Shown piece after piece: positions 2,348 through 19,667 of a stretch of DNA of 56,786 nt. The first letter of the stretch is position 1. Each line of letters opens with the position of its first letter. Under the pieces are notes generated by a model. That model ran no database searches, was not told the origin of the DNA, and worked only from the letters and a program-made list of their open reading frames with translations. The stretch comes from a virus (taxonomy: Duplodnaviria > Caudoviricetes), in IMG/VR virus record IMGVR_UViG_3300025096_003284, positions 1 through 56,786 of that record; one strand, given 5' to 3'. The position numbers were made by a program, and so were the translations under genes.

Positions 2348-3598
2348 ATGTCTGAAAAAATCAAGATCTTCACGATTGGCGATCACCCTTTATCACCATC
2401 AGGAGTAGGATCCCAATCTAAATATATTATTGAAGGGATGTTAAAAACAGGAAAGTACCAGTTTTTCTCCTTCGGGGGCGCCATAAAGCACCCTGATCAT
2501 AATCCACAACACACAGAAGAATGGGGAGAAGACTGGATTATTTGGCCAGTTGATGGCTACGGTAACGCCGATATGGTTAGGGCCATGCTCCACCAAAATA
2601 AGCCCGATATTATGTGGTTTATGACGGACCCTAGGTTCTATACTTGGTTATGGTCAATAGAAAATGAGATCCGCTCCCACGTTCCTATGATTTACTATCA
2701 CGTGTGGGATAACTACCCATACCCCACTTTTAACAAACCGTGGTATGCCAGTAACGATCATATTGCATGCATTTCCAAGCTCACCCACGACATAGTTCAA
2801 ACAGTGGTTCCGGACGTTGAGAGTAGTTATATCCCACACGCGGTCGACGCAGAGGTCTTTCGCCCGCTGCCACAAGAAAATATAACACAATTCCGACAGA
2901 GCCGCGGCATAGATGATAGGTTTGTGTGTTTTTGGAACAACCGCAACGCTCGCCGAAAGCAATCTGGAACACTGATTTTTTGGTTTAAAGAATTTTTAGA
3001 CAAAGTGGGGCATGACAAGGCCACCCTTATTATGCATACAGATCCAAAAGACATTCACGGACAAGATTTAGAAGCCATTATTCATGAATTGGGGCTCACC
3101 TCGGGACAGGTATTATTCTCACGCGATAAAGTACAGCCTACAGATCTTGCTATGGTATATAATATGGCCGACTTGACGATCAATATTTCGGATGCTGAAG
3201 GATTTGGTCTGGCGACGTTAGAATCACTCTCGTCAGGCACCCCTATTCTCATTAATAAAACCGGAGGCCTCCAAGATCAGATAAGTGATGGGGAAACCTC
3301 TTTTGGAATCGGCCTAGAGCCCAGCTCGAAAGCAATAATCGGCTCACAGGATGTTCCTTACATTTATGAAGACAGGCTCAATAAGGATGACTTCCTCGAA
3401 GCGCTAACAACTCTGTATGAGATGCCGGCCGAAGAAAGGGTAGCCCTAGGACACGCCGGCCGTAAATTTACGGAGACTCAATTTAATTTTGAAACATTCA
3501 CCAAGAGCTGGGATGAACTATTCACTCGTGTTTACGAAGAAATGGGCTCCTGGGAAGACCGCAAGGGCTATAGCCCATATACTGTAAAGGAATATTAA
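2348..3598 (+). CDS. Glycosyltransferase, GT4/GT-B fold
   Basis: SGVG N-terminal loop, PHAVD, NRN.RRK and EGFGLATLE (E-x7-E) motifs. Confidence 0.9.
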   Translation: MSEKIKIFTIGDHPLSPSGVGSQSKYIIEGMLKTGKYQFFSFGGAIKHPDHNPQHTEEWGEDWIIWPVDGYGNADMVRAMLHQNKPDIMWFMTDPRFYTWLWSIENEIRSHVPMIYYHVWDNYPYPTFNKPWYASNDHIACISKLTHDIVQTVVPDVESSYIPHAVDAEVFRPLPQENITQFRQSRGIDDRFVCFWNNRNARRKQSGTLIFWFKEFLDKVGHDKATLIMHTDPKDIHGQDLEAIIHELGLTSGQVLFSRDKVQPTDLAMVYNMADLTINISDAEGFGLATLESLSSGTPILINKTGGLQDQISDGETSFGIGLEPSSKAIIGSQDVPYIYEDRLNKDDFLEALTTLYEMPAEERVALGHAGRKFTETQFNFETFTKSWDELFTRVYEEMGSWEDRKGYSPYTVKEY

Positions 3599-3599
3599 A

Positions 3600-4853
3600 G
3601 TGCAGAAGAAAATTTTAATTAAAGCTCCGATTTTATCGCGATCGGGTTATGGAGAACAATCTCGATTTGCTCTCCGTGCTCTGCGTAGCCGCCCTGATCT
3701 TTTTGACATTTACATTGTTAATATCCCGTGGGGGCGCACGGGCCAAATCATCGAGCACAACGAAGAAACTGATTTCATTAAGATGTCAATGACAAAGACA
3801 GCAGAATACGTTCAGCGCCAAGCGCCATTCGATATATCTCTGCAGATAACAGTGCCAAATGAATTTGAAAAAATCGCACCTGTGAACATCGGATACACTG
3901 CCGGTATTGAGACTACCAAAGTGGCCCCAGAATGGATAGATAAAAGTAACCAAATGGTCGACCGTCTGATTGTCGTCTCTAACCATGCAAAAAAGGTTTT
4001 CGAAAACACCAAATACACGGTTAAGGACCAAGCTGGAAATGACTATCCTAATTGGGGACTGACAGTCCCGGTAAGCGTGGTTAACTACCCGGTGCACGAA
4101 AGGGAAAGTTCGCCTGTTGATGTTGAGTTTACTACAGAAAATAACTTCCTAGTGGTCTCCCAGTGGGGCCCCCGTAAGAATCTCGATAATACTATTAAGT
4201 GGTTTGTGGAGACGTTTAACGACGACGATTCGGCCGGCCTGGTTCTCAAGACTAATACCGCCAATGATTCAATAGTTGATAAGTATCATACTAGCGCCCG
4301 TTTAGATAACCTATTAAGGGATTATGAAAACAGAAAATGCAAGATTTACTTGATCCACGGCGACCTGACCGCGAACGAGTTAACTTGGCTTTATCGTCAT
4401 CCTACGATGAAGGCTCTTGTCAACATTGGCCATGGCGAGGGATATGGTCTCCCTCTGTTTGAGGCAGCTTATAATGGTTTGCCCCTACTCACGGTTACTT
4501 GGAGCGGCCATATGGATTTCATTTGCAAGCCAAACAAAAAAGGAAAAAACTTCCCTCGTGTTGTTGGCGTCGATTACGATCTTAAGCCAGTTCAGAAAGA
4601 GGCCGTCTGGCCCGGAGTTATTCAGGAAGATTCTATGTGGGCGTTTGCGCGAGAAGCATCTTACAAGAGAGGGCTGAAAGAAGTCCTTGAAAAAGAGAAG
4701 CATAACAAGCAGGTTGCAACAGCGCTTCAAAAGCATATTTTGGAAACCTTCACTGCCGAGAAGATGTATGAACAATTTATTTCAAGCATCTATAATCCTT
4801 CGGACGAAGAGGTTGAGTGGATGAATACCCTAGGGGAGATTGAAATCTTGTAA
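3600..4853 (+). CDS. Glycosyltransferase, GT4/GT-B fold
   Basis: SGYG N-terminal loop, PRKN and GEGYGLPLFEA motifs. GTG start. Confidence 0.88.
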   Translation: MQKKILIKAPILSRSGYGEQSRFALRALRSRPDLFDIYIVNIPWGRTGQIIEHNEETDFIKMSMTKTAEYVQRQAPFDISLQITVPNEFEKIAPVNIGYTAGIETTKVAPEWIDKSNQMVDRLIVVSNHAKKVFENTKYTVKDQAGNDYPNWGLTVPVSVVNYPVHERESSPVDVEFTTENNFLVVSQWGPRKNLDNTIKWFVETFNDDDSAGLVLKTNTANDSIVDKYHTSARLDNLLRDYENRKCKIYLIHGDLTANELTWLYRHPTMKALVNIGHGEGYGLPLFEAAYNGLPLLTVTWSGHMDFICKPNKKGKNFPRVVGVDYDLKPVQKEAVWPGVIQEDSMWAFAREASYKRGLKEVLEKEKHNKQVATALQKHILETFTAEKMYEQFISSIYNPSDEEVEWMNTLGEIEIL

Positions 4854-5695
4854 TGTCCTGTCTCTTTTTATCTGACCTTTATAGTGACCAGATTAATGGA
4901 GGGGCGGAAAACAACGATGCAGTCCTCATTCAGCATCTGCGAGATAAAGGAGTTGAATTGGAGTGTCGTTCTACTAAGGATATCACCCCCGATGAGATAA
5001 GTGCATTTAACTGTATTATTTTATCTAATTTTATACTCCTAAGTGAGCAAGCAAAAGCTCATTTAACTAATAATTGTCGCTACGTGATTTATGAGCATGA
5101 TCACAAATATATTAATACCCGTGACCCTTCCAAGTTTGTAGATTTTAAAGCTCCCCCTGCGCAGCTTATTAATGCCGACCTATATGCTAATGCTGCACAG
5201 GTGGTGGTGCTAAGTAAAATATGTAAGTCGGTGGTGGAGAAAAACCTTGGCATTAACAACGTACACAGTATAGGAACTAGCCTGTGGTCAACCAAGAAGT
5301 TTAAGTTCATTAAGCAATTAATCAAAGGTGCCACAAAGACAAAGGACCTCGCAGTTTTAAATTCACCCAACCCAACCAAAGGGACTATACCTGCGGTTGA
5401 ATTTTGTAAGACAAACGGAATGAGCCCAGACCTCATTAACTCCCCAGACCAGTATGAGTTTCTTCAAATTTTAAGTGAGTATCGCACCCTATTGTTTATC
5501 CCTCAGGTATTAGAGACCTTTTGCCGTTTGGTGGCAGAGGCCAAGATGTTGAATTGTAACATACAGACAAAAAAAAACTTAATTGGGCTTATGAGTGAAC
5601 CTTACTCCGACCAGTCGGGGCTAGAATTGCTGGAGACCCTAGAGAAGAAAGTTGAGGAAGCTCTAGATCATTTTTATGAGTTGGTGACAGAATGA
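4853..5695 (+). CDS. Glycosyltransferase-like protein (GT-B)
   Basis: GGAE N-terminal loop, KG, and ETFCRLVAEA (E-x7-E). TAATG coupling. Confidence 0.7.
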   Translation: MSCLFLSDLYSDQINGGAENNDAVLIQHLRDKGVELECRSTKDITPDEISAFNCIILSNFILLSEQAKAHLTNNCRYVIYEHDHKYINTRDPSKFVDFKAPPAQLINADLYANAAQVVVLSKICKSVVEKNLGINNVHSIGTSLWSTKKFKFIKQLIKGATKTKDLAVLNSPNPTKGTIPAVEFCKTNGMSPDLINSPDQYEFLQILSEYRTLLFIPQVLETFCRLVAEAKMLNCNIQTKKNLIGLMSEPYSDQSGLELLETLEKKVEEALDHFYELVTE

Positions 5696-6552
5696 TAATA
5701 GGATTATCTTCAGATCATAATGGTGTTGAACTCAAAACGAAGATGGCGCAATATCTCCGCGATCAAGGAGATTTTAAGGTTATTGACATAGGTCCGTTTT
5801 CCTCTACTAAAAAAGTCGATTACGTCGATTATGCTAGCCAACTCTCACAGATGGTGAGCAATGGCGATCTAGATCGCGCTATATTAATCTGTGGTACCGG
5901 AGTTGGAATGAGTATCGCAGCCAACCGGTTTGAGAAAGTCCGTGCCGCATTGGTTCACAACGTTATGACGGCACCCAAATGTCGTGAGCACAATAACTCC
6001 AATGTGTTGTGCTTAGGTGCTTGGACCACCTCCGAAGAGGAGAATTTTGAAATCTTAGATTTGTGGCTGCAAACTATCTTTGGAGAAGGTCGACATGTGA
6101 AGCGCGTAGAGAAGCTTTCGTCGCACCGCGCCAACATTGTATTTACAAGTGGTGTATTCGACATTTTACACGCTGGTCATATAGAACTACTACGATTTGC
6201 TAAATCATTGGGGGACCGTCTTATTGTTGGCTTGAACTCTGATGAAAGTGTTAAGAGAATTAAGGGGCCCCATCGCCCCATTACAATGCAGGAAGACCGA
6301 AAAGGCCTTTTGGAAGCACTCCTAGAAGTCGACGAGGTCGTTATCTTCGATGCGGACAGCCCCGCAGACTTAATATCAGATATATCCCCCACCATTCTTG
6401 TAAAAGGTGGCGAGTGGACGGTGGATGAAATTCGATCCCGCGACAGCATCCCGGCCGAAATAGAAATCAAGGTATTTCCTATTGTAGGAAAATATTCTAC
6501 AACAAACATTATCAATCAGATCTCGCAAGTGGATGACGGTGAGAAACAATGA
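5692..6552 (+). CDS. rpiB: Fusion of RpiB/LacAB sugar-phosphate isomerase and HldE-type (RfaE domain II) nucleotidyltransferase
   Basis: N-terminal half has SDH.G, DY, ICGTGVGMSIAAN, HNNSNVLCLG and GRH..R. C-terminal half has TSGVFDILHAGH, GLNSD.SV, KGG and YSTT. Confidence 0.9.
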   Translation: MIIGLSSDHNGVELKTKMAQYLRDQGDFKVIDIGPFSSTKKVDYVDYASQLSQMVSNGDLDRAILICGTGVGMSIAANRFEKVRAALVHNVMTAPKCREHNNSNVLCLGAWTTSEEENFEILDLWLQTIFGEGRHVKRVEKLSSHRANIVFTSGVFDILHAGHIELLRFAKSLGDRLIVGLNSDESVKRIKGPHRPITMQEDRKGLLEALLEVDEVVIFDADSPADLISDISPTILVKGGEWTVDEIRSRDSIPAEIEIKVFPIVGKYSTTNIINQISQVDDGEKQ

Positions 6553-7463
6553 CATTCCTTAATCAAAACATCTTAGTTATAGGCGACTCAATCCTGGATC
6601 ATAAAGTATTTTGTAAAGCTGTTGGACTCTCGCTGGAGACACCAACTCTCAAGACGCGTCTCAACAAAGAGGAATATTCCTTTGGCGGCGCCGCCAATGT
6701 TGTCAATAACTTGCTACTGTTGGGAGCTAAGGTAACCTTTGTGACGCCCCTTGCAACAGATTCTCACCGACATCATTATCTTGGCTGGAATCAGACAAAC
6801 TTAACTGTTAAGCCACTGCAGTTTGACGGAACAAATGTGGTCAAATCTCGATACTGGATTTCTAAGGGAGACGGTCTCTATAAGTATCTTCAGGTTAATC
6901 AAGGTACTAAATTTAATGATCCTCAGCTTGTCATAAGCACTCTTACAGAGCTTTTGTATACAGATAGATATGATAAAGCCATATTGGTGGATTATCGCGG
7001 CGGCCTCTTTGAACAGAAAGAGGAAGTAAAATTAATTTTGGACATTTTGTATGGGCACCACATAAAAACGTACGCCGCATCACAGATGTCAGATAGAAAA
7101 GGTCAATATGATATTTTCGAAGGGGCCGGCCTTATATGCTTAAATCGCGAGGAAGCTGCAGCTTTGGTGGCGGGGTTCGAACCCACAGATGAAAAATTGA
7201 ACGAATTGTCCGCGCAATTGGGGGCCCGAGTATGTGTAACACTTGGCGCAGACGGAAGCATCCTTAGTAGTCCGTCAGGCGCCGTTAGAGCGGCCGCACA
7301 CCAAGTTGAAACTATTGACACCTGTGGAGCAGGAGACAGCTTCCTGGCAGCGCTGGTGGCGTCTGACGAGGATTTGGCTTTTAGTAATAAATGGGCCGCG
7401 GCATCGACATTGCAAATAGGCACAAATGCACCAAGTTTAGAGGAGGTGTTGTCATGGAGGTGA
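6549..7463 (+). CDS. PfkB-family sugar kinase, HldE (RfaE domain I)-like
   Basis: VIGD.ILD, GGAANV..N, VTLGADG and DTCGAGDSF motifs. Confidence 0.88.
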   Translation: MTFLNQNILVIGDSILDHKVFCKAVGLSLETPTLKTRLNKEEYSFGGAANVVNNLLLLGAKVTFVTPLATDSHRHHYLGWNQTNLTVKPLQFDGTNVVKSRYWISKGDGLYKYLQVNQGTKFNDPQLVISTLTELLYTDRYDKAILVDYRGGLFEQKEEVKLILDILYGHHIKTYAASQMSDRKGQYDIFEGAGLICLNREEAAALVAGFEPTDEKLNELSAQLGARVCVTLGADGSILSSPSGAVRAAAHQVETIDTCGAGDSFLAALVASDEDLAFSNKWAAASTLQIGTNAPSLEEVLSWR

Positions 7464-8134
7464 AGCAGCTCGTTCTAGATGCCAATCGCTGGATTGTTGA
7501 GAAGGGGCTAGTTAGTCTTACTTGGGGGAATGTTAGTGCCCTCGATGCCTCGTCTGCGGCGCTTATTATTAAGCCCTCTGGAATATCTCTCAAAGAGGCC
7601 ACAGAAAAGGATATGTCTGTCGTAGCGTGGGATGGCTCGCTATTAGATGGCAAAAAGCCATCTGTTGACACCCCTACTCATCTTGAATTATATGAGCGCT
7701 TCCCTGAAGTTCGATGTGTTATCCACACTCATTCTAAATACGGCACCATCTTTGCCCAAGCTAACCGATCGGTTCCTTGCCTTGGTACTACCCACGCGGA
7801 TTATTTTGCAGGAGACATCCCCTGTGTTCCACACCCTAACGAAAATCAAATAAATACAGATTATGAAATGTTTACGGGGAGAATAATAGGTGAATATTTT
7901 AAGAAAAATAGTTTAAACTATAATCACATTCCTGGATGCATAGTGCAGGGACATGGCGTATTTACGTGGGGAGAAACGATAGACAAGGCACTTGAAACAG
8001 CCTATGTCTTAGAGTTAGTGGCAGAAATGGCGTTTAAAACCCTTGCACTAGATTCTTACAGTTACTTAGCAGATTTTGTAGCTGAAAAACATTTTGCACG
8101 AAAGCACGGACAGACAAGTTATTATGGACAATGA
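7454..8134 (+). CDS. araD: L-ribulose-5-phosphate 4-epimerase (class II aldolase/AraD family)
   Basis: TWGNVS, IKPSG, KPSVDTPTH, HTHS, GTTHADYF, GHG and C-terminal RKHG..YYGQ. AGGAGG Shine-Dalgarno at 7441 precedes ATG 7454. Confidence 0.9.
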   Translation: MEVKQLVLDANRWIVEKGLVSLTWGNVSALDASSAALIIKPSGISLKEATEKDMSVVAWDGSLLDGKKPSVDTPTHLELYERFPEVRCVIHTHSKYGTIFAQANRSVPCLGTTHADYFAGDIPCVPHPNENQINTDYEMFTGRIIGEYFKKNSLNYNHIPGCIVQGHGVFTWGETIDKALETAYVLELVAEMAFKTLALDSYSYLADFVAEKHFARKHGQTSYYGQ

Positions 8135-8570
8135 AATAAAATACGGCCGACAAGAGCTACCTCCCGTTACAACGGTTGTTAAAGAGGTCGAAAAGTACTG
8201 GGGTGGTATGAAAACCCTATTCGAGAATGACCTGTACTCCGTCAAGAGAATCTTTATGAAAAAAGATACTCAGAGTAGTATGGAGTATCATGTGAAAAAA
8301 GAGGAATCTTATTACATCGAATCTGGAAAGCTTAAAGTAGGTACCCGTATAGGCCGCGCCGTGAATACCTCACTGATACTTAATCAGGGTGATGTATTTC
8401 ATATACCAGTAGGGTTTATGCATATGCGCATAGCTCTAGAAGATACTGTTATTATAGAGTTCTCCACACTAGATGATGATGGTGACTCGCATATAGTAGA
8501 AGATGGGAAAACATATACCCACGTAGACGACCCTTGGGCTCGCCCTCGGCAAACAAAGAAAGAGACTTAA
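8124..8570 (+). CDS. Cupin-domain protein (putative sugar isomerase)
   Basis: K.WG start, S..YH..KEE.Y...SG, GD...IP.G..H and EFST motifs. Confidence 0.8.
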   Translation: MDNEIKYGRQELPPVTTVVKEVEKYWGGMKTLFENDLYSVKRIFMKKDTQSSMEYHVKKEESYYIESGKLKVGTRIGRAVNTSLILNQGDVFHIPVGFMHMRIALEDTVIIEFSTLDDDGDSHIVEDGKTYTHVDDPWARPRQTKKET

Positions 8571-8571
8571 A

Positions 8572-9240
8572 ATGAAACTGTTTATTGATACAGCAAACCT
8601 AGAAGAAATTGAAAGCGCTTTAGAGCGCGGAGTAGTACAGGGAGTGACGACTAATCCATCCCTCTTATCGAAAGAGCCACAGGCGGACTTTTATTCCCAT
8701 ATTCAAAAGATAGCAAACTTATGTACCGAACTCGCACCTGGTATTCCGCTCTCGGTTGAAGTCTTTGCAGAAGAGGCTGACGAAATGATAGCCCAGGCTC
8801 AGGAGATTATGAAGACTATAGAATATACTAACTTAAATATCAAGGTGCCGATCGGCTATGATGAATTGCGAGTCATTAGTGAGCTGAAAGAATTAGGTAT
8901 CCCGGTTAATTGTACCTGCTGCTTCACAGCGACCCAGTTGCAGTTAGCTGCATTGGCCGGTGCACGCTATGTCTCGCTCTTTTATAATCGAGCACTCGAT
9001 AGCCAGATCGATGCTATTGAGATTTTAGAGCGCACGCGTGCATTTATTGATTTTAATGAACTTGAGTGTGAAATAATTGCTGGCAGTATTCGTAATGCTT
9101 ATGACCTAGAGGACTGTTGGGCCGCCGGCTGCGATATTGTTACCGCAGGACTCCCTGTTATTAAGAAGTCCGTATCCCACCTCAAAACAGATGAATCGGT
9201 TAATGGATTTTTGAAGGATTTCGCAGCATGGATAAAATGA
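8572..9240 (+). CDS. tal: Transaldolase (short TalC/FSA-type family)
   Basis: FIDTAN, GVTTNPSL, NIKVP (Schiff-base Lys) and AGSIR. Glu in SVEV and Phe in SLFYNR match transaldolase rather than fructose-6-P aldolase (Gln/Tyr). Confidence 0.9.
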   Translation: MKLFIDTANLEEIESALERGVVQGVTTNPSLLSKEPQADFYSHIQKIANLCTELAPGIPLSVEVFAEEADEMIAQAQEIMKTIEYTNLNIKVPIGYDELRVISELKELGIPVNCTCCFTATQLQLAALAGARYVSLFYNRALDSQIDAIEILERTRAFIDFNELECEIIAGSIRNAYDLEDCWAAGCDIVTAGLPVIKKSVSHLKTDESVNGFLKDFAAWIK

Positions 9241-9557
9241 CCTATGTAATTGATATCGACGACACCATATGCCGAACAAACGAAAGCGACTATGAAAATT
9301 CAGAGCCGATGCAACATCGCATAGATGCTGTTAATAAGCTCTATGATGACGGCCACACGATTTTGTTTTTGACCGCGCGCGGTATGTGCCGCAACAAGAA
9401 CCATCAATTAGACGCTATTGCAGAACTACACAAGTTTACGCATGATCAGCTGGTAAGATGGGGAGTTAAATTTCATAAGCTTTTCTTAGGTAAGCCGGCC
9501 GGAGATATCTATATTGATGACAAGGGCTGCAAGGATATAGATTTTTTTGATGAGTGA
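9237..9557 (+). CDS. Small HAD-superfamily phosphatase (capsule-biosynthesis type)
   Basis: DIDDT, TARG, GKP and IDDK motifs. ATGA overlap with the tal stop. Confidence 0.82.
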   Translation: MTYVIDIDDTICRTNESDYENSEPMQHRIDAVNKLYDDGHTILFLTARGMCRNKNHQLDAIAELHKFTHDQLVRWGVKFHKLFLGKPAGDIYIDDKGCKDIDFFDE

Positions 9558-10371
9558 TGGGCATCTAATAGCTGGCCCTTGGGTTGGAGAATTCGGATGG
9601 GAGCTATATGCGTGGCAGGGATATGTCCGCGCGCTCTCTCGAAGCTTCTCCAAAACAACAGTTATTTCTAGGCCTAATTCGCAATACTTATATGAAGACT
9701 TTGCTGATAGGTTTATACCACATACTCCCACCGGAGGTCACCCCGATGCTTTTTTGATGCACGGGTTTGATATGAAAACCTCATTGAGAGAAATTGTACA
9801 GGAGAACCAAATACAAACTGGGCCCCATACAACTTTGTTTACACCTCGCCGTCTTGGGAACCCTCCTTATACTCATTACACTACACCGGTCGAGGTAGGG
9901 ACCTTCGCAATAGTTCCAGAATACCATATGTATGGTACAAAAAACGCGACCGCAGAGTTTGACTACTTGTTTCATATTCGCAATCGTGATATGCGCGCTG
10001 AAGACAATTGGGATAAAGAGAAGTGGAGTGTCTTAAGGCACCTGCTCGGCGCCGATAAGAAGATAGGCTGCATCGGCACTACTAGTCAGTCAGGTCTGGT
10101 CGAAGGGACCACAGACCTGAGAGGTATTTCTCTAGAGGAAACATGCAATACCATCAAGGGCTGCAGAGCAGTTTTCGGACCTTCCTCGGGTCCTATGCAC
10201 CTTACAAGTCTGTGCGGGGTACCTCACGTAGTGTGGTCGGTTAAAGACCAGGTCCGATATACAGAAAATTGGAATCCATTTAATACTCCGATTCTTTACT
10301 TGAACGAGCAGGGATGGCGCGCCATACCGCAGTTTATCTATGACAAGTACCAGGCTTGGACAGGAGCCTAA
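9550..10371 (+). CDS. GT9/heptosyltransferase-like glycosyltransferase
   Basis: N-terminal GEFG; NW..EKW; DLRG..SLEE; GPSSGPMHL...GVP as in the GT9 C-terminal motif. Confidence 0.7.
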   Translation: MSDGHLIAGPWVGEFGWELYAWQGYVRALSRSFSKTTVISRPNSQYLYEDFADRFIPHTPTGGHPDAFLMHGFDMKTSLREIVQENQIQTGPHTTLFTPRRLGNPPYTHYTTPVEVGTFAIVPEYHMYGTKNATAEFDYLFHIRNRDMRAEDNWDKEKWSVLRHLLGADKKIGCIGTTSQSGLVEGTTDLRGISLEETCNTIKGCRAVFGPSSGPMHLTSLCGVPHVVWSVKDQVRYTENWNPFNTPILYLNEQGWRAIPQFIYDKYQAWTGA

Positions 10372-10764
10372 GTGTCACAGATAGTTTTTACAAACGGATG
10401 CTTTGATATTCTGCATCGAGGACATTTCGAGCTTTTAAAGTATTGTAAATCCTTGGGAACTGTCATAGTGGGCTTAAACAGCGATGCTAGCGTAGCACGC
10501 CTTAAGGGCCCAACCCGACCTTTTTTCAATACCGCGGACAGACAGTTTGCACTAGAGAGCTGCAGCTATGTGGATAAGGTGGTGGTATTCGACGAGGATA
10601 CACCATACAATCTCATCAAAGAATTGGCGCCCGATATTGTCGTAAAGGGAGGCGATTATAAAGCCGAAGAAGTTGTAGGTTATGATCTAGCCGAGGTGAA
10701 GATTTTTAATTTTGTTGATGGTTATTCAACAAGCAAAGTATTAGAAGAGAAGGAAGATGTTTAA
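10372..10764 (+). CDS. Stand-alone HldE-type nucleotidyltransferase (cytidylyltransferase-like family)
   Basis: FTNGCFDILHRGH, GLNSD.SV.RLKG..RP, VKGGDY and GYSTS motifs. Confidence 0.9.
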   Translation: MSQIVFTNGCFDILHRGHFELLKYCKSLGTVIVGLNSDASVARLKGPTRPFFNTADRQFALESCSYVDKVVVFDEDTPYNLIKELAPDIVVKGGDYKAEEVVGYDLAEVKIFNFVDGYSTSKVLEEKEDV

Positions 10765-11557
10765 GATATTACTGATTGGCGATGCTTGCGAGGATGTATA
10801 TCATTATGGCTCGATCGATCGATTGTGTCCGGAAGCACCGGTACCTATCGTGAGACACACCCACACCGAAACCCGGGACGGCATGTGTCTGAACGTAAGA
10901 AACAACCTCCAGACGTTTGGTATGTCCGTTGAGGTTTTGTGCAATGCTGAGCTGATTCAAAAACAGCGTTTTGTAGACCTTCGAACAAAGCAGCACTTAC
11001 TTCGAGCCGACTTCGGGGAAAACGAAAGATTAGCTCAATGCGACGCTGCAAAAGTCGAAAACTATGACTTCGCGTCTTTAGATGCGGTGGTGATAGCAGA
11101 TTACAATAAAGGATTTGTCGAAAAAGAAGTCATCGAGATTGTGACGAAGAAGGCTGCGGCAGAAAACATTAACGTCTTTGTTGACTCTAAAAAAAGCGAC
11201 CTGAGCGCGTATAAGAATTGCATCATAAAGATTAACAAATTAGAATTCAATAAGCTGAAAAAACAACCAGAACAGTGTGAGCTGATTATAACAATGGGAG
11301 AAGAGGGGGCCCGATGGAATGGAAACACATACCCCACAGAAGCCTGTGATGTGTTTGATGTGTGCGGTGCCGGCGACACTTTCTTGGCAGCCCTGGTTTA
11401 TGAACAACTCGAAACTAAGTCAATCGAAAAAGGAATTCAGTTTGCTAACCATTGCTCACGCTTGGTGGTGGGCAAATTTGGAACGTACACACTAACTTCC
11501 GAGGATGTTAAAAATATAAGAGACAAGGGAGAAAATCAAAATGAAGTTTGTACCTAA
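10757..11557 (+). CDS. PfkB-family sugar kinase, HldE (RfaE domain I)-like
   Basis: IGD.C.D, R..PEAPVP, DYNKG and DVCGAGDTF motifs. Confidence 0.9.
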   Translation: MFKILLIGDACEDVYHYGSIDRLCPEAPVPIVRHTHTETRDGMCLNVRNNLQTFGMSVEVLCNAELIQKQRFVDLRTKQHLLRADFGENERLAQCDAAKVENYDFASLDAVVIADYNKGFVEKEVIEIVTKKAAAENINVFVDSKKSDLSAYKNCIIKINKLEFNKLKKQPEQCELIITMGEEGARWNGNTYPTEACDVFDVCGAGDTFLAALVYEQLETKSIEKGIQFANHCSRLVVGKFGTYTLTSEDVKNIRDKGENQNEVCT

Positions 11558-11882
11558 AGGCTGGGGCTTTGAAAAGTGGATTGTTAATAACGAAGAGTAT
11601 TGTGGAAAATTACTTTACTTTGTTAAGGGCAAAAGATGCTCTTGGCATTATCACGTATTAAAAGATGAAGTATTTTATATACAATCAGGGAAAATTCTGG
11701 TAAAATATTCGGAGAGTGATGATCTTGAATCAGCCGAAGAGAAAACTTTAGAGCGCGGAGACAATTTTCACGTATATCGAGGATTGCGTCATCAGATGGT
11801 TGCTCTAGAGGACACCGAGCTGTTTGAGTTCTCAACTCAGCACTTTGACTCGGATAGTCATAGGATTATTAAAGGAGACTAA
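11541..11882 (+). CDS. Cupin-domain protein (putative sugar isomerase)
   Basis: KGWGFE, YCGK, S.HYH..KDE.FY..SG, H and EFSTQH motifs. Paralog of 8124..8570. Confidence 0.82.
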   Translation: MKFVPKGWGFEKWIVNNEEYCGKLLYFVKGKRCSWHYHVLKDEVFYIQSGKILVKYSESDDLESAEEKTLERGDNFHVYRGLRHQMVALEDTELFEFSTQHFDSDSHRIIKGD

Positions 11883-12779
11883 ATGTATAATTTCCGTATG
11901 CCCACGGTTCCGAAGAAAAAAGAGAGGTATGTTTACCCCAACAAGCAGGCCCCATATGAGAAGGTTTGTTTTGGCATTCGAGGCCAGTTCGGCGATATCG
12001 TGATGCAAGAGCCGGGCTTGAGAAAGTTTATTGAAGAAAATCCAGAAACTAAGATAGTTTTTGCTGTTTCTGAGCCCTATAAGGACATTCTTCCCCTTTT
12101 TGAGAACTATCATGAGAACATAGTAGGCTTCAAAGTCTGGGAGGGATACAATGAGTGGCCCACAGAGGCCGACCGTAAATATATGGAAGAAGAAAACTTT
12201 GATGCTCTGTTTCCTCCGGACATCCCTTTGCATGCCCAGCCGGACTGGGCCCACCGCCGCCACATCACCACAGAGACAGCTTTGATGATCGGGGTTACGT
12301 CCGGTGACACGAATATACAGCTTAAAATGCCAGCAGATGTCGAAAAAGAGCCGAAAACGGTCGGATTGCACCTGTTTTCGAGCAAGTGGCCAGGGGGCGC
12401 AAGATCCGTGGATGTGCAGAAACAGACTTCTATTGTCGACCATATAGTTGCCAAAGGCTATAAAGTATACCAGTTGTCCGCCCCGGACCAGCCGCGCATC
12501 CCAAATACAACCTTTTCGGAGGGCTCCTATTTTGATTCGTGTAAACGAATGCTTACTACGGACCTTTTAATCACTTGCGACTCCGGGATGCCCTGGATTG
12601 CGTCAGCGTACGACCACCCTATGGTGGGGCTGTACTCGACGGCCTATAACCCGCTTATAGAAACCACTAAAAACTGGCAACCGGAGAACCCTAATGCCGT
12701 TTTCTTAGAGGGTCCGCTCGCCAATGATATACCACTAGAGGTGGTTTTGGCTGCGATAGATGGAAAGCTAGAGGATTAG
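11883..12779 (+). CDS. GT9/heptosyltransferase-like glycosyltransferase
   Basis: GQFGDIVM N-terminal motif and ITCDSG..WIASA...P.VGLY C-terminal motif. Confidence 0.8.
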   Translation: MYNFRMPTVPKKKERYVYPNKQAPYEKVCFGIRGQFGDIVMQEPGLRKFIEENPETKIVFAVSEPYKDILPLFENYHENIVGFKVWEGYNEWPTEADRKYMEEENFDALFPPDIPLHAQPDWAHRRHITTETALMIGVTSGDTNIQLKMPADVEKEPKTVGLHLFSSKWPGGARSVDVQKQTSIVDHIVAKGYKVYQLSAPDQPRIPNTTFSEGSYFDSCKRMLTTDLLITCDSGMPWIASAYDHPMVGLYSTAYNPLIETTKNWQPENPNAVFLEGPLANDIPLEVVLAAIDGKLED

Positions 12780-12782
12780 ACC

Positions 12783-13664
12783 ATGAGAATCTCCCTTATT
12801 ACACCCCCATCCCATAACATTGAGCCTTGGGTGCCTATTTTTGAGAAGAAGGGCGTCAAAGTCCATCTCAATGGTATCCACCCTGATTGTGATTTCATTA
12901 TAAATACGAGCCAATCCTGGATTCACCTGGTGGTGATGTTTCGAAACACGTTTCCACATATTCCTTTTATCAATTATACTCTGGATTTCTACAAAACTGT
13001 ATGGACTGCCCCGAATCCGCACGGATATAACTGGGCCGCGTACCGAGACATTATAAAAACGGCCACAGAAGTGTGGTGTATCTCCAATGAAGTAAAACAA
13101 CGACTGACAGAAGAGGGAATAAACCCTGATCTCTGTGAGGTCATGAAAATATGGGCCCGATTCTTTGATTATCCGGGCACCATTGAAGATAAGCGCTATA
13201 TTCTTAATCCAATGCGCGCCTATATCGCCGACAAAAACTATGGTTGGCTTGACCGCGCGTGTAGCGAACTAAACATTCCTGTAGTCAAAACACAGAATAG
13301 CCTGACCCTCGACGACTTTCGCAAGACCATTGCGGAATGCAGTTTTATGTGCACAGAATATCATGAAACCTCCACCGGAGGTCTAACCCTGTTGGAAGGA
13401 TATAGGCTTGGCAAACCCTCTGTTGTGAGCGATTCTCCTTATGAGGGTGTCCGCGACTATCTGGGGGATAAGGCCATTTATTTTGATGACAACAGCTATG
13501 AAGATTTCAAGAGAGTCATCAAGGAGACCTGGGAAAATCCGCCGCAACTGGATTTAAAAGAGTGTGAGGCTTATTGCGATACACACCCCACCCTTGAAGA
13601 AACAGTCGATGTTATGATTGCCCGTATGCAAATACTCAAAGAAAGAGAGAACGAAAATGGATAA
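12783..13664 (+). CDS. Glycosyltransferase-like protein (GT-B)
   Basis: E.STGGLTLLEG...GKP.VVSD, followed by AIYF..SYEDF...I. Confidence 0.65.
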   Translation: MRISLITPPSHNIEPWVPIFEKKGVKVHLNGIHPDCDFIINTSQSWIHLVVMFRNTFPHIPFINYTLDFYKTVWTAPNPHGYNWAAYRDIIKTATEVWCISNEVKQRLTEEGINPDLCEVMKIWARFFDYPGTIEDKRYILNPMRAYIADKNYGWLDRACSELNIPVVKTQNSLTLDDFRKTIAECSFMCTEYHETSTGGLTLLEGYRLGKPSVVSDSPYEGVRDYLGDKAIYFDDNSYEDFKRVIKETWENPPQLDLKECEAYCDTHPTLEETVDVMIARMQILKERENENG

Positions 13665-14406
13665 AGCCACCATCAGATACCAACAGAGATTGGTCGTAGA
13701 TCACGAGATCGTGTTTCATGATCTACTAGAAACCGGAATGAATATGGATAAACATATTATTGCCGGGACGGCGTTCCAGCGCCCAGACCACAACTTTCAG
13801 CCATTGTTGCGCTTGGTTAAGAAGGGGTCTGTAGTTTATGATCTAGGATCGTACATCGGCACCTTTGCCATTCCAATGGCAATCGAAGGGATGGAAGTCC
13901 ATGCATTTGAGGGATTCCCTGACAACTATGAAAGATGCAAGAAAAACACAGAGCCATATAACGTGACAAATTATCAGGTCGCTGTGAGTAATGAAAATTA
14001 TACTGTGGATTCAAAATTTAATAACTGTATGGATAATGAGTATGAAGTGCGCACGATTAAATATGTGCGTCTAGACGAATACGTAAAGAAGAACAAGATA
14101 CCCGCCCCGTCTTTGGTAAAAATGGATATTGAAGGGATGGAAACTTTGGCGTTGCATGGGATGACTAATCTATTGGAAAATGTACGCCCGATATGGAGTA
14201 TGGGATATCACTTTAAGTTCTACTCTACAGTCGAAGGATACCCGGGCTGGATTGATGTAAAGGATGGAGGCTTCGATTTTAAGAGATTTACTGAGCTGGA
14301 ATATATAATCTTTGACGAGCTCGGCCGCCGAGCTCCTCCACATATACTTGACATTCGCGGAGGAGAGTTTACATTTATACCTAGGGAGAAGATTAAAGCA
14401 AAATGA
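13657..14406 (+). CDS. FkbM-family SAM-dependent methyltransferase
   Basis: VYDLGSYIG, HAFE, LD, and LVKMDIEGME..AL.G motifs. Confidence 0.85.
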   Translation: MDKATIRYQQRLVVDHEIVFHDLLETGMNMDKHIIAGTAFQRPDHNFQPLLRLVKKGSVVYDLGSYIGTFAIPMAIEGMEVHAFEGFPDNYERCKKNTEPYNVTNYQVAVSNENYTVDSKFNNCMDNEYEVRTIKYVRLDEYVKKNKIPAPSLVKMDIEGMETLALHGMTNLLENVRPIWSMGYHFKFYSTVEGYPGWIDVKDGGFDFKRFTELEYIIFDELGRRAPPHILDIRGGEFTFIPREKIKAK

Positions 14407-15011
14407 AAAAGGTCTGTATAGCTGCTTCTAGGGACGTTGGGCTCCGCTGTGCAGCGTGGGCGAAAGACCACACACCACATGGTTTCGAAGTAACTGAGGA
14501 TATGTCAGCTGCAGATATTATTATATGTGTTATGTATGAGAAAATACTGGGCCCCCAATATGTTAATAACAGTACTTGTTTTAACTTTCATCCTGGTATC
14601 TTGCCTGAGTATAAGGGATCTGGAACCTTTAGTTGGGTCATTATTAATGAGGAGCAAAAGGCAGGAGTCACTCTCCATTTAATTGACCGAGGACTAGATA
14701 CAGGAGACGTTATTGAGATAAGAGAATTCTTGATAGGAAAAGAAGATACAGCCTACTCCTTATTTTTAAGAGGCGAAGAAGTTATCTTCAAGATGTTCAA
14801 GAATTGGTACGCTGATCTGCTCCAGGGTCAGTACACTGCGATCCCGCAACGAAGCAAGAAGGGAAACCTTTATTACAAGAAGGACTTGCAGAAAGCCAAA
14901 AATCTAACGAGGTTTGTTAAGGCTTTTTATTTCCCCAACAAGGAGGCTGCTTATTATATTAATGACAAAGCAGAGAAAATTTATTTAAACTTTAAAGAGG
15001 AACAACGATGA
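14403..15011 (+). CDS. N10-formyl-THF-dependent formyltransferase (sugar N-formyltransferase-like)
   Basis: NFHPG.LP.YKG and GVTLH.ID.GLDTG motifs. Confidence 0.88.
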   Translation: MKKVCIAASRDVGLRCAAWAKDHTPHGFEVTEDMSAADIIICVMYEKILGPQYVNNSTCFNFHPGILPEYKGSGTFSWVIINEEQKAGVTLHLIDRGLDTGDVIEIREFLIGKEDTAYSLFLRGEEVIFKMFKNWYADLLQGQYTAIPQRSKKGNLYYKKDLQKAKNLTRFVKAFYFPNKEAAYYINDKAEKIYLNFKEEQR

Positions 15012-15964
15012 GAAATATTCAAAATTGCAATGTATGCGTAATTGGGGGAGCCGGCTTTCTCGGATCCCAACTAGTTGATCACTTGATTGAGGATCGTAGC
15101 TGTAATGTTATTGTTTTAGATAACCTAATAACGGGCCTTAAAAAACACATTCACCCCGACGCTGTCTTTAAGTGGTTCGACATCCGAGACGACGAAAACG
15201 AACTAGCCAAGATTTTTAATGAAAACAAGATTGACTATGTATTCAACTATGCGGCAGAGCCTTACATCCCGGAGTGCTTCGAGCGCCCGATGCACTTCTT
15301 TGATATTAACGCCACATCGGTACTGCGTGTATTAAATGCGTGCCAGAAAGCCGACATTAAAGGGCTCTTACAAGTTTCGTCCGCTGAGATCTATGGCGAT
15401 ATGAAAGGCAAGATCACGGAATCAGATCCGATCGTTCCGCATTCTACCTACGGGGTTTCTAAAGTGGCCGCCGATGGCCTCGTTCAAGTGCGCTGGCGAG
15501 AGGGGAAGGTTCCAGCGATCGCGATGAGACAATTTAATTGTGTAGGCGAGCGAGAGTCACACCCATATGTGATCCCTGAAATCATTTACCAAATGGACTA
15601 CTCAAACAAAATCAAGCTCGGCAACAACTCCTTCAGAGATTTTCAGTATTCTGGCGATGCAGTGAGAATGGCTGTGGAATTGTTAGAAAAAGGCGAGTTC
15701 GGCGAAGTTTATAACATGGGGAGCGAAGGGGGCATTCAAATTTATGATTTGGCTCATCTTATTGGTAAGCTTATGGGACACGAGACTGTCGAAATTGAAA
15801 CAGATCAGTCCCGTGTGCGCCCGTGGGAAATCTGGCATCTTCAGTCTGACAACACAAAGCTTTATGCTGCCATCGGCCAGAAGACTCCCACATCACTTGA
15901 AGAAGCACTACAGAAAACAATTGATTATTTTTATGCCAACGGAAAATCGTGGGATTGGGAATAG
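15008..15964 (+). CDS. NAD-dependent nucleotide-sugar epimerase/dehydratase (extended SDR)
   Basis: GGAGFLG, SSAEIYG, YGVSK (YxxxK) and R.FN motifs. Confidence 0.9.
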   Translation: MRNIQNCNVCVIGGAGFLGSQLVDHLIEDRSCNVIVLDNLITGLKKHIHPDAVFKWFDIRDDENELAKIFNENKIDYVFNYAAEPYIPECFERPMHFFDINATSVLRVLNACQKADIKGLLQVSSAEIYGDMKGKITESDPIVPHSTYGVSKVAADGLVQVRWREGKVPAIAMRQFNCVGERESHPYVIPEIIYQMDYSNKIKLGNNSFRDFQYSGDAVRMAVELLEKGEFGEVYNMGSEGGIQIYDLAHLIGKLMGHETVEIETDQSRVRPWEIWHLQSDNTKLYAAIGQKTPTSLEEALQKTIDYFYANGKSWDWE

Positions 15965-15967
15965 TAA

Positions 15968-16555
15968 ATGAGTTTTGAGGTAATCAAAACATTTGAAGAT
16001 GAGTTGGCAAAGTTTTTTGGTTCTCCTTATGCAGTTACAACTGATTGCTGCACACACGCTGTAGAGTTGTGTTTGCGGTATAAAGATATCAAGTCGATTA
16101 GCGTCCCGAAGCACACTTACATATCTATTCCTCTTTTGTCCCGCAAGCTTGGCCTTGACTTAGAGTGGCGAGACGAGGAGTGGCTGGATTACTACACAGT
16201 TGCTGATAATATCATTGATGCCGCAGTTCTGTGGAAGCCGGAGAGTTATATCCCGGGAACCTTTATGTGTGTGAGCTTTCAGTTCAAGAAACACTTGAGC
16301 CTAGGCCGCGGAGGCGTTATCCTCACAGATAATAAAGAGGCCGCGCTAGATTTAAAAAAGATGTCGTATGATGGACGAACACCGGATACCCCATGGGCAA
16401 CACAGAATATTAGCACTATGGGATATCATTACTATATGACACCCGAGACGGCAATCAACGGATTAGAGAAGCTGCCTGGGGCAATTGTCAACCCTCCTAA
16501 GCAGTGGACGATAGAGGACTGGCCAGACTTAACAAAAATGGAGATATTTAAGTGA
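15968..16555 (+). CDS. Minimal DegT/DnrJ/EryC1/StrS-family PLP aminotransferase-like protein
   Basis: FE..LA..G..YAV...CT.A, VP..TY, IDAA, SFQFKKHL..G.GG and GY.Y.M motifs. Only 195 aa. Confidence 0.75.
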   Translation: MSFEVIKTFEDELAKFFGSPYAVTTDCCTHAVELCLRYKDIKSISVPKHTYISIPLLSRKLGLDLEWRDEEWLDYYTVADNIIDAAVLWKPESYIPGTFMCVSFQFKKHLSLGRGGVILTDNKEAALDLKKMSYDGRTPDTPWATQNISTMGYHYYMTPETAINGLEKLPGAIVNPPKQWTIEDWPDLTKMEIFK

Positions 16556-17544
16556 GATTTTTAGTTACAGGCGCCACCGGTTTCGCTGGCCCGCATATGA
16601 TAAACCGGATTTTAGCCGACGGCCACGAAGTTGTTGCTATGGCCAGAAATTTAGAAACTGCTCCGGGCATTGAAAACATTGTTGGGGAAAATATTAATAA
16701 AATTGAATTTGTATATGGAGACCTAGCTGAGTTAGATTCTCTATCTGCAATTTTTGCAAACGACACCTTTGACGGTGTGTTTCATCTGGGCGCTTTTGCA
16801 CACCCACCTTCCTCTTTTGTCACACCGCTTTTGGCTAGCCAAACCAACATCTTAGGAACCGCTCGCATCTGTGATGAGATCCTAGAGCGAATGCCTGACT
16901 GTGTTTTGATGAATTGTTCTACCCCCGAGGTGTATGGAATATGCCCCGGCGATCGAAAGATTAAAGAAGACACACCTCTGGTCCCCAATAACCCCTATGG
17001 TGTTTCAAAAGCCGGCGCCGATATGTATGTTCTTGAGCGCGCTGCCACAACCGGGTTGAAGACCTTCTTAACACGCGCATTCTCACATACTGGACCCCGC
17101 CGCGGCCCAAATTTTTCAATATCTTCGGATGCAATCCAAATCGCGCGCATCCTTAGAGGACAGCAGGAGCCCATCATCAAAATTGGAAACATGGCTGCCC
17201 TACGAATTGTGGCTGATGTCCGCGACATTGTTGACGTTTATTATCAGTTAATGCTTAAGTTTATGGAAGGTGCCATTGAAACCGGCGACATCTTTCATAT
17301 TGCTGGAAACGATTTGCACACAATGCAACACTATTTAGACCTGATGCTGGGGATCTCGGGACTCACAGACAAGGTTACGCTAGAAATAGAACCAAAGTTT
17401 TTACGAAAAGTGGAGATCCCCGTACAAATACCTGACGACTCCAAGGTCAGAGCTTTATTGGGATGGGCGCCTACTATTCCTATTGAAGAAACGCTTGAAG
17501 ATCTGGTAAACTATTGGTTGGGAGAAATAGATCATGGGAATTAA
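16552..17544 (+). CDS. GDP-mannose 4,6-dehydratase/RMD-like extended SDR
   Basis: TGATGFAG, FHLGA....SF, PYGVSK, R.FSH.GPRR, GN....R...DVRD and LGW.P motifs. Confidence 0.85.
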   Translation: MRFLVTGATGFAGPHMINRILADGHEVVAMARNLETAPGIENIVGENINKIEFVYGDLAELDSLSAIFANDTFDGVFHLGAFAHPPSSFVTPLLASQTNILGTARICDEILERMPDCVLMNCSTPEVYGICPGDRKIKEDTPLVPNNPYGVSKAGADMYVLERAATTGLKTFLTRAFSHTGPRRGPNFSISSDAIQIARILRGQQEPIIKIGNMAALRIVADVRDIVDVYYQLMLKFMEGAIETGDIFHIAGNDLHTMQHYLDLMLGISGLTDKVTLEIEPKFLRKVEIPVQIPDDSKVRALLGWAPTIPIEETLEDLVNYWLGEIDHGN

Positions 17545-18604
17545 AGACGTAGACGCGCACAAATTAATGTACTACCCTGAAGAGGTAGCAAAATGGCTGA
17601 CAACGGGTGCCACAACTCCGTTGCATGTTGAGATTGGACCAACGAACCGTTGTAATCATCACTGTAGTTTCTGCAGCGTTGATTGGGCAACTCACGGAAA
17701 AGTACTGATTGATACTGAGGTATTGGAGAAGGCTATTCATTCGATGGCTGATGTTGGTGTAAAATCAATATATTTTGCTGGCGAGGGAGAGCCTATGCTT
17801 CACCCTGACATCGGCAAGTTTTTGCAAGCCGGCTGGAATCGTGGCATTAAAACCTCGATGGCTACAAATGGATCGAGATTGACCGAAAAGATGATCCCGG
17901 AAGTACTACCGTATCTATCGTGGGTACGATTTAGTATGGATGCAGCAACTCCGGATACACACAAATCAATTCATAAGAATAAAGACTTCGATCGTATTAT
18001 CAAGCACCTTCGAGCGGCCACTGCATATAAAAAAGAGCACAACTTAGAGGTAGAGCTTGGCGCTCAGTTCATCGTGTTAGAAGAGAATCTGACCGAACTG
18101 GAACAGTTCGCTGATCTTATGAAGGATGTGGGAGTCGACAATATTCAGTTTAAGCCACACCACAACCACCCCAAGAGTGCTTCCAACCCCACTCTTTACA
18201 ACCTGACAGACGAAGATCTAAAACAACGCCTGGTGGCTCGCAGCACAGATGACTTTGTTGTTATGGTTCGAAGCCGAAACATTCAAGAACTACCGGTTAT
18301 TGATGGCCAAAGCCACAATTATTGCTATAAGAAGTGCTATGCATATAATTTCCTGACGCTAATTGATGCATACGGGGAGTGCTATGGTTGCAATGTTTTC
18401 TATAACACACCTGATTATAGCTTTGGGAATATTCACAAGCAGTCCTTCGAAGAAATCCATACAAGCGGACAGGTCCAAGACACAATGGAACGTGTTGCAG
18501 AACTAGACCATGTACAGTGTGGTAACTATAAGTGTCGTCCTCATGTTTTAAATGAATATCTTCATCGAGTTAAAAACCCCGAGAAGAACGACGAATTTAT
18601 TTAG
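17534..18604 (+). CDS. Radical SAM enzyme with C-terminal SPASM/Twitch-like domain
   Basis: CNHHCSFC (CxxxCxxC), GEGEP, TNG, and C-terminal Cys cluster with FGNI...SF.EI. Confidence 0.9.
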   Translation: MGIKDVDAHKLMYYPEEVAKWLTTGATTPLHVEIGPTNRCNHHCSFCSVDWATHGKVLIDTEVLEKAIHSMADVGVKSIYFAGEGEPMLHPDIGKFLQAGWNRGIKTSMATNGSRLTEKMIPEVLPYLSWVRFSMDAATPDTHKSIHKNKDFDRIIKHLRAATAYKKEHNLEVELGAQFIVLEENLTELEQFADLMKDVGVDNIQFKPHHNHPKSASNPTLYNLTDEDLKQRLVARSTDDFVVMVRSRNIQELPVIDGQSHNYCYKKCYAYNFLTLIDAYGECYGCNVFYNTPDYSFGNIHKQSFEEIHTSGQVQDTMERVAELDHVQCGNYKCRPHVLNEYLHRVKNPEKNDEFI

Positions 18605-18616
18605 CAAGAGGTTTTG

Positions 18617-19486: not shown

Positions 19487-19500
19487 AGAACGGAGATAAA

Positions 19501-19665: not shown

Positions 19666-19667
19666 TA

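Follow-up and report, generated by a model that had tools for sequence, protein, structure and literature searches.

How might a phage build a seven- or eight-carbon nucleotide sugar without GmhA, the SIS-domain isomerase of the ADP-heptose pathway? The question is raised by a run of seven genes at positions 5692 to 10371 of an IMG/VR virus record of 56,786 bases, the whole of which was analyzed and is called the window here (CheckV completeness 39%). From the sequence, we lean toward the reading that the first six genes (5692-9557) would form a self-contained, GmhA-free route to a nucleoside diphosphate (NDP)-linked C7 or C8 sugar, with a small cupin protein as the isomerase. This is the only reading that gives each conserved gene a job. 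The sugar is probably ADP-linked. An octose is offered tentatively as the product, and a heptose seems a little less probable again; a heptose would result if the transaldolase (Tal) acted on erythrose-4-phosphate, and RpiB would then have no obvious role.

All seven genes that the first-pass annotation of this DNA had listed were recovered on the + strand, where neighboring genes abut or overlap by 4 to 17 nt (Table 1). The RpiB half of the first gene matched LacAB_rpiB (PF02502, E 1.3e-47), passed the TIGR01120 equivalog (142.1 bits, cut-off 138.65), and scored 163.6 bits against PRK05571 (cut-off 135); the CGTG, SDH, and RHxxR stretches visible in its sequence presumably have a role in RpiB. 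The nucleotidyltransferase (NTase) half matched CTP_transf_like (PF01467, E 3e-17) and reached 156.3 bits against TIGR02199 (rfaE_dom_II), below the cut-off of 181.5, and the best PDB matches of the fusion were RpiB enzymes and the cytidylyltransferase 5x9q. The kinase (kin1) scored 90.6 bits against TIGR02198 (rfaE_dom_I), for which the cut-off is 345. Both kinase and NTase were nearest to the domains of HldE, in keeping with the HldE-type kinase, phosphatase, and nucleotidyltransferase logic proposed in the first pass.

The AraD-type protein passed PRK08193 (264.9 bits, cut-off 257), fell below the TIGR00760 equivalog (246.8 bits against 389.1), and aligned over its full length with Escherichia coli AraD 1jdi (202 bits), including the HTHS, HADY, and C-terminal YYGQ stretches; its probable start is the ATG at 7454, with AGGAGG ahead of it. 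The transaldolase passed PF00923 (152.9 bits against 27) and scored below TIGR00875 (161.6 bits against 245.95). Its best solved relative was the Bacillus subtilis transaldolase 3r8r (128 bits), with which it aligned at the Schiff-base Lys (NIKVP), at a Glu (SVEV), and at a Phe (SLFYNR). Glu and Phe at these positions distinguish Tal from FSA, and the Tal-type pair reported earlier was confirmed by this alignment. The small HAD protein gave weak matches below cut-off to the capsule phosphatase model TIGR01689 (39.6 bits, cut-off 162) and to HAD-SF-IIIA (22.5 bits), and its sequence contains DIDDT, LTARG, and GKP..DD stretches, which we take to be HAD motifs.

Table 1. Genes of the cassette, of the trio upstream of it, and of the second module downstream, with window positions
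Feature	Position	Strand	Evidence
Upstream trio: two GT4-type glycosyltransferases and a 280-aa protein	2348..5695	+	Glycos_transf_1 for both glycosyltransferases
RpiB (residues ~1-145) fused to HldE-domain-II-like NTase (~147-286)	5692..6552	+	Pfam, NCBIfam, PDB
kin1, pfkB-family kinase, distant HldE-domain-I relative	6549..7463	+	PF00294 E 1.5e-21
AraD-type 4-epimerase with class II aldolase fold	7454..8134	+	PF00596 Aldolase_II E 3.8e-47
cupin1, PMI-like metal cupin	8124 (probable ATG)..8570	+	PF01050 just above gathering
Transaldolase, small (TalC/FSA-size), Tal type	8572..9240	+	PF00923 TAL_FSA E 1.5e-44
HAD-type phosphatase, 109 aa	9228..9557	+	weak family matches, DxDxT
GT9L1, 274-aa GT-B glycosyltransferase with GT9-like fold	9547..10371	+	AlphaFold model, Foldseek
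Second module NTase	10372-10764	+	rfaE_dom_II 151.2 bits, cut-off 181.5
Second module pfkB kinase (kin2)	10757-11557	+	rfaE_dom_I 152.7 bits, cut-off 345
cupin2	11541-11882	+	Cupin_2 E 3.6e-7
GT9L2, weakly GT9-like	11883-12779	+	Glyco_transf_9 E 0.0065, 16.3 bits, below cut-off 22

In the proposed pathway, RpiB would supply ribose-5-phosphate, or another aldopentose-5-phosphate after AraD had inverted C4 of a pentulose-5-phosphate. Tal would move a C3 unit from fructose-6-phosphate or sedoheptulose-7-phosphate to an acceptor, giving octulose-8-phosphate if the acceptor were ribose-5-phosphate and sedoheptulose-7-phosphate if it were erythrose-4-phosphate. The cupin, which resembles phosphomannose isomerase (PMI), would turn the ketose phosphate into an aldose phosphate, the job of a SIS-type GmhA or LmbN in known pathways. 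Kin1 would phosphorylate the anomeric O1, the small HAD protein would take off the distal phosphate in the role of GmhB, and the HldE-type NTase domain would activate the sugar-1-phosphate. GT-B transferases, such as the GT9-like protein GT9L1, would finally attach the sugar to a glycan.

A search with the RpiB-NTase fusion gave 80 viral loci, seven of which held the full-length fusion, and a scan with cupin1 gave nine viral loci, four of them additional to the fusion search, for a total of 11. The order RpiB-NTase, kinase, AraD, cupin, Tal, HAD was kept in these 11 related viral loci, one of which ends inside Tal (L083); the AraD gene was absent from two (L003 and L006). Judged by gene order, the seven-gene run is no chance grouping, because the same order was found in the 11 viral contigs and in one Prochlorococcus contig. 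It has to be weighed whether RpiB, AraD, and Tal are instead auxiliary pentose-phosphate genes that lie amid glycan genes by chance and share no pathway. Cyanophages often carry talC and other carbon-metabolism genes, and talC matches were found in 502 phage records. Such an accidental grouping was already disfavored, and we regard it as highly improbable: RpiB and the NTase share one reading frame, adjacent genes overlap by a few bases, the order is conserved over 12 loci, one of them cellular, and cupin-Tal, cupin-HAD, and cupin-HldE fusions exist. Among the 80 NTase-centered viral loci (tblastn, E <= 1e-5, query coverage of 50% or more; contig ends truncate many loci), a cupin was counted in 40, a kinase in 30, and a small HAD in 14; RpiB and Tal occurred together in seven, and 73 had neither.

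Tal was adjacent to other members in all 12 cassettes, and it was at most 39% identical to any Tal of a phage isolate (36.5% to cyanophage TalC). The cupin-Tal fusion led to three short metagenome contigs (L113, L114, and L115) carrying a pfkB kinase, a bicupin, a Tal 34% identical to that of the window, and a 217-aa HAD_2 phosphatase, with two B12-binding radical SAM enzymes and a polysaccharide deacetylase next downstream. As read from these contigs, a distant lineage, whose HAD is of another type, repeats the kinase-cupin-Tal-HAD order. The earlier placement of Tal within the pathway was upheld by its presence in all 12 cassettes, by the cupin-Tal fusion, and by this recurrence; Tal is a core part of the cassette and no metabolic stray.

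Cupin1 was the most conserved cassette protein, with 61-88% identity across the viral relatives. Cupin1 (Cupin_1) passed the MannoseP_isomer family (PF01050, PMI type II C-terminal domain) only at the border, with 24.9 bits against a gathering threshold of 23.6, and many of its homologues have a precomputed PF01050 match. Among the 1.84 billion representatives searched were 1,139 relatives, and the 30 longer ones that were scanned form the fusion catalogue. In one protein of 587 aa the cupin was fused to PfkB and CTP_transf_like, that is, to a whole HldE; other fusions joined it to PfkB (two proteins), CTP_transf_like (three), HAD (two), and, in one protein each, NTP_transferase, NUDIX, and TAL_FSA. 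Since it is fused to HldE, PfkB, CTP_transf_like, HAD, and TAL_FSA, the cupin is, by domain architecture, a member of the pathway. In an alignment of 49 cupin sequences, W26, G27, H56, G68, E112, and D121 were invariant and K41, S52, K59, E61, G89, and H100 nearly so. Cupin1 has, as predicted from this alignment, a conserved His/Glu/His metal site (H56, E61, H100) with lysines close by; its first metal-site position is Glu, where most relatives have His.

The cupin1 model (pLDDT 91.7) was compared with known folds using Foldseek and VIA-align. The matches were about tied, with the CapF cupin domain at the top (Z 15.6), followed by the Thermococcus kodakarensis cupin PMI (Z 14.6), and with D-lyxose isomerases, KdgF, a cysteine dioxygenase-like protein, and Pac13 also near. 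An epimerase role has been reported for the CapF cupin domain. PDB sequence searches with cupin1, cupin2, GT9L1, and GT9L2 gave nothing significant. Aldose-ketose isomerase would be the most economical role for cupin1, favored because of the PF01050 match and the fold matches to PMI and lyxose isomerases, and cupin1 is the leading candidate for a GmhA-like isomerase. PMI and GmhA produce the same C2 configuration. Cupin1 is like type II PMI cupins, archaeal cupin PMI, and D-lyxose isomerases in the PF01050 pass, the His/Glu/His site, and the fold matches, but its identity to them is 18-22% in structure alignments, and non-isomerase cupins tie with them in fold.

The PMI-like character of cupin1 would also suit a shorter sugar, either ADP-beta-mannose, made from fructose-6-phosphate by the cupin and next by the O1 kinase, HAD, and NTase, or an NDP-pentofuranose made from the products of RpiB and AraD, with Tal only supplying fructose-6-phosphate or balancing pools. 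In favor of this, the cupin has the type II PMI C-terminal domain as its sole family assignment and a small archaeal cupin PMI among its leading fold matches, the RpiB and NTase domains are joined in one protein, and all tests made on AraD and RpiB point to pentose-phosphate enzymes. Fructose-6-phosphate and ribose-5-phosphate are, however, abundant central metabolites, which would make a dedicated, always-linked Tal superfluous, and the transferase fold and the kinase and NTase families suggest heptose-type chemistry. We know of no precedent for ADP-beta-mannose or NDP-pentofuranose products of this kind, and we consider a shorter sugar quite unlikely.

A tblastn search with cupin1 against phage isolates gave 35 records, all from cyanophages or marine viruses; the cyanophage cupin bears the RefSeq label 'cysteine dioxygenase'. 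In S-CAM1 and P-TIM68, its neighbors were an NTase, a pfkB kinase, a 'phosphoheptose isomerase' of 107 and 112 aa, respectively, and SDR epimerases. The 'phosphoheptose isomerase' proteins are encoded at 6709-7032 of L081 (S-CAM1) and at 7342-7680 of L082 (P-TIM68). Neither matched a Pfam family, and the S-CAM1 protein was 49% identical to the small HAD of the window (E 2e-36); the label is therefore most likely wrong, and the protein would be a small HAD phosphatase. With the annotation corrected in this way, claims of a cyanophage gmhA need rechecking. The same label is carried by a genome announcement (PMC7378029).

These cyanomyophage 'heptose' modules (S-CAM1, P-TIM68, S-T4, S-SM2, and others) are like the cassette in having an NTase, a pfkB kinase, a small HAD, and a cupin and in having no SIS isomerase, and they add an SDR epimerase. 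Unlike the cassette, they are without RpiB, AraD, and an adjacent Tal, and their cupin is 35-40% identical to cupin1. The window holds a second module of this type (10372-12779). The first-pass annotation had named the cupin or RpiB as the isomerase; given the cupin fusions and the RpiB-less cyanophage modules, we favor the cupin over RpiB as the putative isomerase. RpiB was considered as the substitute for GmhA and found less likely, since cyanophage modules that have no RpiB still contain the cupin, and since the score of the RpiB domain lies above the cut-off of the true RpiB equivalog. A tie of the cupin to HldE-type genes everywhere was also considered and was rejected, since five picocyanobacterial cupin2-like genes had no kinase or NTase within the stretches examined. 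In one picocyanobacterial genome (L104, ~9929-12593), a cupin2 homologue (63% identical) without a nearby kinase or NTase adjoins a radical SAM-SPASM homologue, a protein related over its full length (24.5% identity) to that of the window. The cupin2 type may have a role beyond HldE-type modules.

The SIS_2 profile (PF13580) gave no match in the window record, which holds about 39% of a genome, so that the absence of GmhA rests on relatives. None of five related virus records, which are 94, 93, 72, 68, and 29% complete, matched the profile, and neither five picocyanobacterial GmhA-like queries (tblastn) nor a small HMM made from them found a GmhA in 91 viral loci and the window. By these searches, the phage lineage appears to be without GmhA, as the first-pass annotation had supposed from the window. 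Among 201 genomes of the Prochlorococcus family searched with TIGR00441 (E <= 0.001), 47 had GmhA-like genes, none of them over the equivalog cut-off, and the genome that carries the cassette was one of these; 154 had no GmhA-like match. The earlier term 'GmhA-independent' fits the phage lineage and may not hold for the infected cell.

A scan of genome contigs found the entire cassette on a 53-kb contig of Prochlorococcus sp. AG-347-M18, with identities of 65% for the cupin and 48% for Tal. The contig is chromosomal; among its genes are ispF, thiE, ribF, surE, pheS, ribD, ftsH, argF, and lexA. The product had been described as a sugar made by a virus, and the cassette is indeed found in one, but not exclusively. 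Its surroundings on the chromosome are those of a polysaccharide island, which also encodes the initiating sugar transferase Bac_transf, GT2, GT11, Wzz, Poly_export, ABC transporters, and a sulfotransferase, and because of this location we conclude that the cassette would serve surface-glycan synthesis. We also conclude that the cassette appears to move horizontally between phage and host. SIS_2, a GHMP kinase, and an NTP_transferase-HAD fusion are encoded at the contig start (L095, 1-2790), ~29 kb from the cassette (L092, 5683-9421); judged by its families, this set is of the canonical GDP-heptose type. With a canonical heptose set already on the same contig, the cassette probably makes a product other than the heptose of that set. 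A cupin1 orthologue was found in one of the 201 Prochlorococcus-family genomes, and relatives of 31-39% identity were found in five more.

The host genes bear on whether the product might be ordinary ADP-D-glycero-beta-D-manno-heptose, with the host supplying heptose-7-phosphate (by GmhA) or sedoheptulose-7-phosphate. The phage kinase, HAD, and NTase would redirect this supply, Tal, RpiB, and AraD would boost flux, and the cupin would tailor the sugar, for example, as an epimerase. Such a division of labor is consistent with the GmhA-like genes of 47 genomes, the cassette carrier included, although the other 154 showed no match. The closest families of the NTase and the kinase are the HldE domains and the fold of GT9L1 is like that of ADP-heptose transferases, yet kin1 itself is a very distant relative of HldE domain I (90.6 bits, cut-off 345). 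RpiB and AraD have a canonical appearance, the CapF domain is the top fold match of the cupin, and talC is a common cyanophage metabolic gene, with matches in 502 phage records. The Tal of the cassette is, however, unlike the free-standing cyanophage talC: it lies inside all 12 cassettes, recurs in the distant lineage, and is also found fused to the cupin. The canonical heptose set beside the cassette in Prochlorococcus also makes a duplicate product less likely. An ordinary heptose is, in our judgment, rather unlikely.

Several points weigh against the GmhA-free C7/C8 route, which was read here from genes and predicted structures. Some hosts have GmhA. The seven loci with both RpiB and Tal are close kin and count as one event, and their co-occurrence is not phylogenetically independent; AraD, missing from two of the 11 viral cassettes, appears dispensable and accessory. 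The kinase, NTase, Tal, and HAD each score under curated equivalog cut-offs, and the RpiB domain and AraD resemble ordinary pentose-phosphate enzymes, so that mere flux support would also fit. The fold matches of the cupin model are tied over many functions, which leaves isomerase and epimerase both compatible with the fold. The cupin family also occurs with no kinase or NTase nearby in the five picocyanobacterial genomes with cupin2-like genes.

The transferase that closes the run, GT9L1, gave no Pfam match (PF01075 included) and no NCBIfam, PHROG, or PDB sequence match. Its AlphaFold model, built on a 28-sequence alignment, had a pLDDT of 89.1, and the ten best Foldseek matches in the PDB were all GT9 enzymes, including WaaF 1psw, Veillonella GT9 3tov, WaaC, and the protein heptosyltransferase TibC (E 4e-7 to 4e-5, TMq 0.49-0.62). 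As modeled, GT9L1 is GT9-like by fold only; the earlier assignment holds at that level and fails at the level of sequence families. The protein had 745 homologues, and among the 120 listed, three carried the JGI name heptosyltransferase and two had PF01075. A GT9-like gene followed the cassette in four of the ten related viral loci that reach beyond the HAD gene, and the GT4-GT4-280-aa trio preceded it in eight of 11, so that 'feeding a GT9' described the locus loosely. The 280-aa protein of the trio matched no known family. In two of the four loci, the GT9-like protein was fused to Glyco_trans_1_2 in a single open reading frame (ORF) (L002, 13837-15609, 590 aa; L005, 14030-15775, 581 aa), and the fusion suggests that the two transferases may work together. 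The window homologue of the Glyco_trans_1_2 partner lies at 18614-19486.

The second module lies directly 3' of GT9L1 and is without RpiB, Tal, AraD, and a phosphatase of its own. It was also found 3' of the cassette in L085, a viral locus colinear with the window across this module and the downstream sugar genes. The two NTases of the window were 48% identical; kin1 and kin2 were 23% identical over 171 aa, with kin2 nearer to HldE, and GT9L1 and GT9L2 had no detectable similarity. The low identity of the kinases and the coexistence of a canonical set with the cassette in Prochlorococcus hint that the first cassette may handle a sugar different from that of the second module or the canonical set.

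Compared with known systems, the cassette is like the ADP-heptose pathway (GmhA, HldE or HldA plus HldC, GmhB, HldD) in its isomerase, anomeric kinase, phosphatase, and nucleotidyltransferase logic, with a pfkB-type kinase and a cytidylyltransferase-like NTase nearest to HldE domains I and II and a transferase of GT9-like fold. Unlike that pathway, it has a PMI-like cupin in place of a SIS-domain GmhA, a 109-aa HAD that is no GmhB equivalog, an NTase fused to RpiB and not to the kinase, a transaldolase and usually AraD, and no HldD-type epimerase. The lincosamide octose pathway (LmbR, LmbN, LmbP, LmbK, LmbO) likewise places a transaldolase ahead of the same logic, and RpiB of the cassette could supply ribose-5-phosphate. 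In the lincosamide pathway, LmbN resembles GmhA, LmbP belongs to the GHMP kinases, and LmbO to the NTP_transferase family, and by these families only the transaldolase appears to be shared; the isomerase of the cassette is instead a cupin, its kinase is pfkB-type, and its NTase is cytidylyltransferase-like. The contexts differ too, with the cassette in a surface-glycan or phage locus and the lincosamide genes in an antibiotic cluster. According to two reports, LmbR uses ribose-5-phosphate as the acceptor to give the 8-phosphate of D-glycero-D-altro-octulose, which then passes to an isomerase, a kinase, a phosphatase, and a guanylyltransferase (PMC5854111, PMC4351081).

No account of the cassette or its chemistry was found in the literature, where cyanophage heptose papers were covered by title and abstract, with supplements outside the scope. 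If the GmhA-free C7/C8 route is correct, heptose-type activation would have a second, unrelated entry enzyme, a cupin for the SIS-domain GmhA, together with a built-in chain-building step, and an undescribed nucleotide sugar would be among the glycans of the recognition arms race between marine phages and picocyanobacteria. Should the more tentative octose product also be correct, no earlier pathway would have supplied a neutral eight-carbon sugar to a surface or virion glycan, and this one would have evolved independently of the lincosamide route and be encoded by abundant marine phages and by Prochlorococcus. The chemistry is likely ecologically widespread, since the cupin and the cassette are abundant in ocean metagenomes (316 close homologues of cupin1 and 745 homologues of the GT9-like protein).

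The wider locus at 2348-19486 holds ~22 glycan genes, including, besides the cassettes, five more GT-B-type transferases and an FkbM methyltransferase; no flippase, polymerase, or initiating transferase was found in it. Its distal part (14403-19486, colinear in L085) encodes a formyltransferase, two SDR dehydratase/epimerases, a 195-aa DegT-like piece that is short for an aminotransferase, a radical SAM-SPASM protein, and Glyco_trans_1_2, and by these families it looks like a formamido- or amino-deoxy-sugar branch. A lysin and proteins of giant tail-fiber size are encoded directly 3' of the glycan locus. Because the locus lies just upstream of the tail-fiber genes, the host envelope or the virion is the probable site of the phage sugar. 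Glycosyltransferase-rich 'host recognition clusters' are described for pelagimyophages in one report, which mentions rfaE (PMC7029224).

The window encodes PhoH, a PD-(D/E)XK nuclease, a baseplate wedge protein, a primase, and a muramidase-GDSL fusion, and its ORFs of at least 129 aa are all on the + strand, save nested or overlapping ones and one at the 3' end. The whole window gave no tRNA and no match to an Rfam family. The wedge protein reached at most 29-30% identity to any isolate, with Microcystis phage Mel-JY01 and Flavobacterium phage immuto as the top matches, and a megablast search with 5692-12779 matched no phage isolate; the phage is, by these comparisons, an uncultured marine myophage distant from cultured phages. 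In a tblastn search with the RpiB-NTase fusion against phage isolates, none of 70 records covered at least 80% of the query. A gap of ~640 bases without an ORF of at least 100 aa (19487-20127) separates the glycan locus from a putative late sigma factor-like gene (20423-21118). The muramidase-GDSL esterase fusion is a protein of 671 aa (21408-23423), and downstream of it (24451-44568) lie genes for proteins of 1,779 aa, with no PHROG match, and 3,656 aa, which are presumably tail fibers or other host-recognition proteins.

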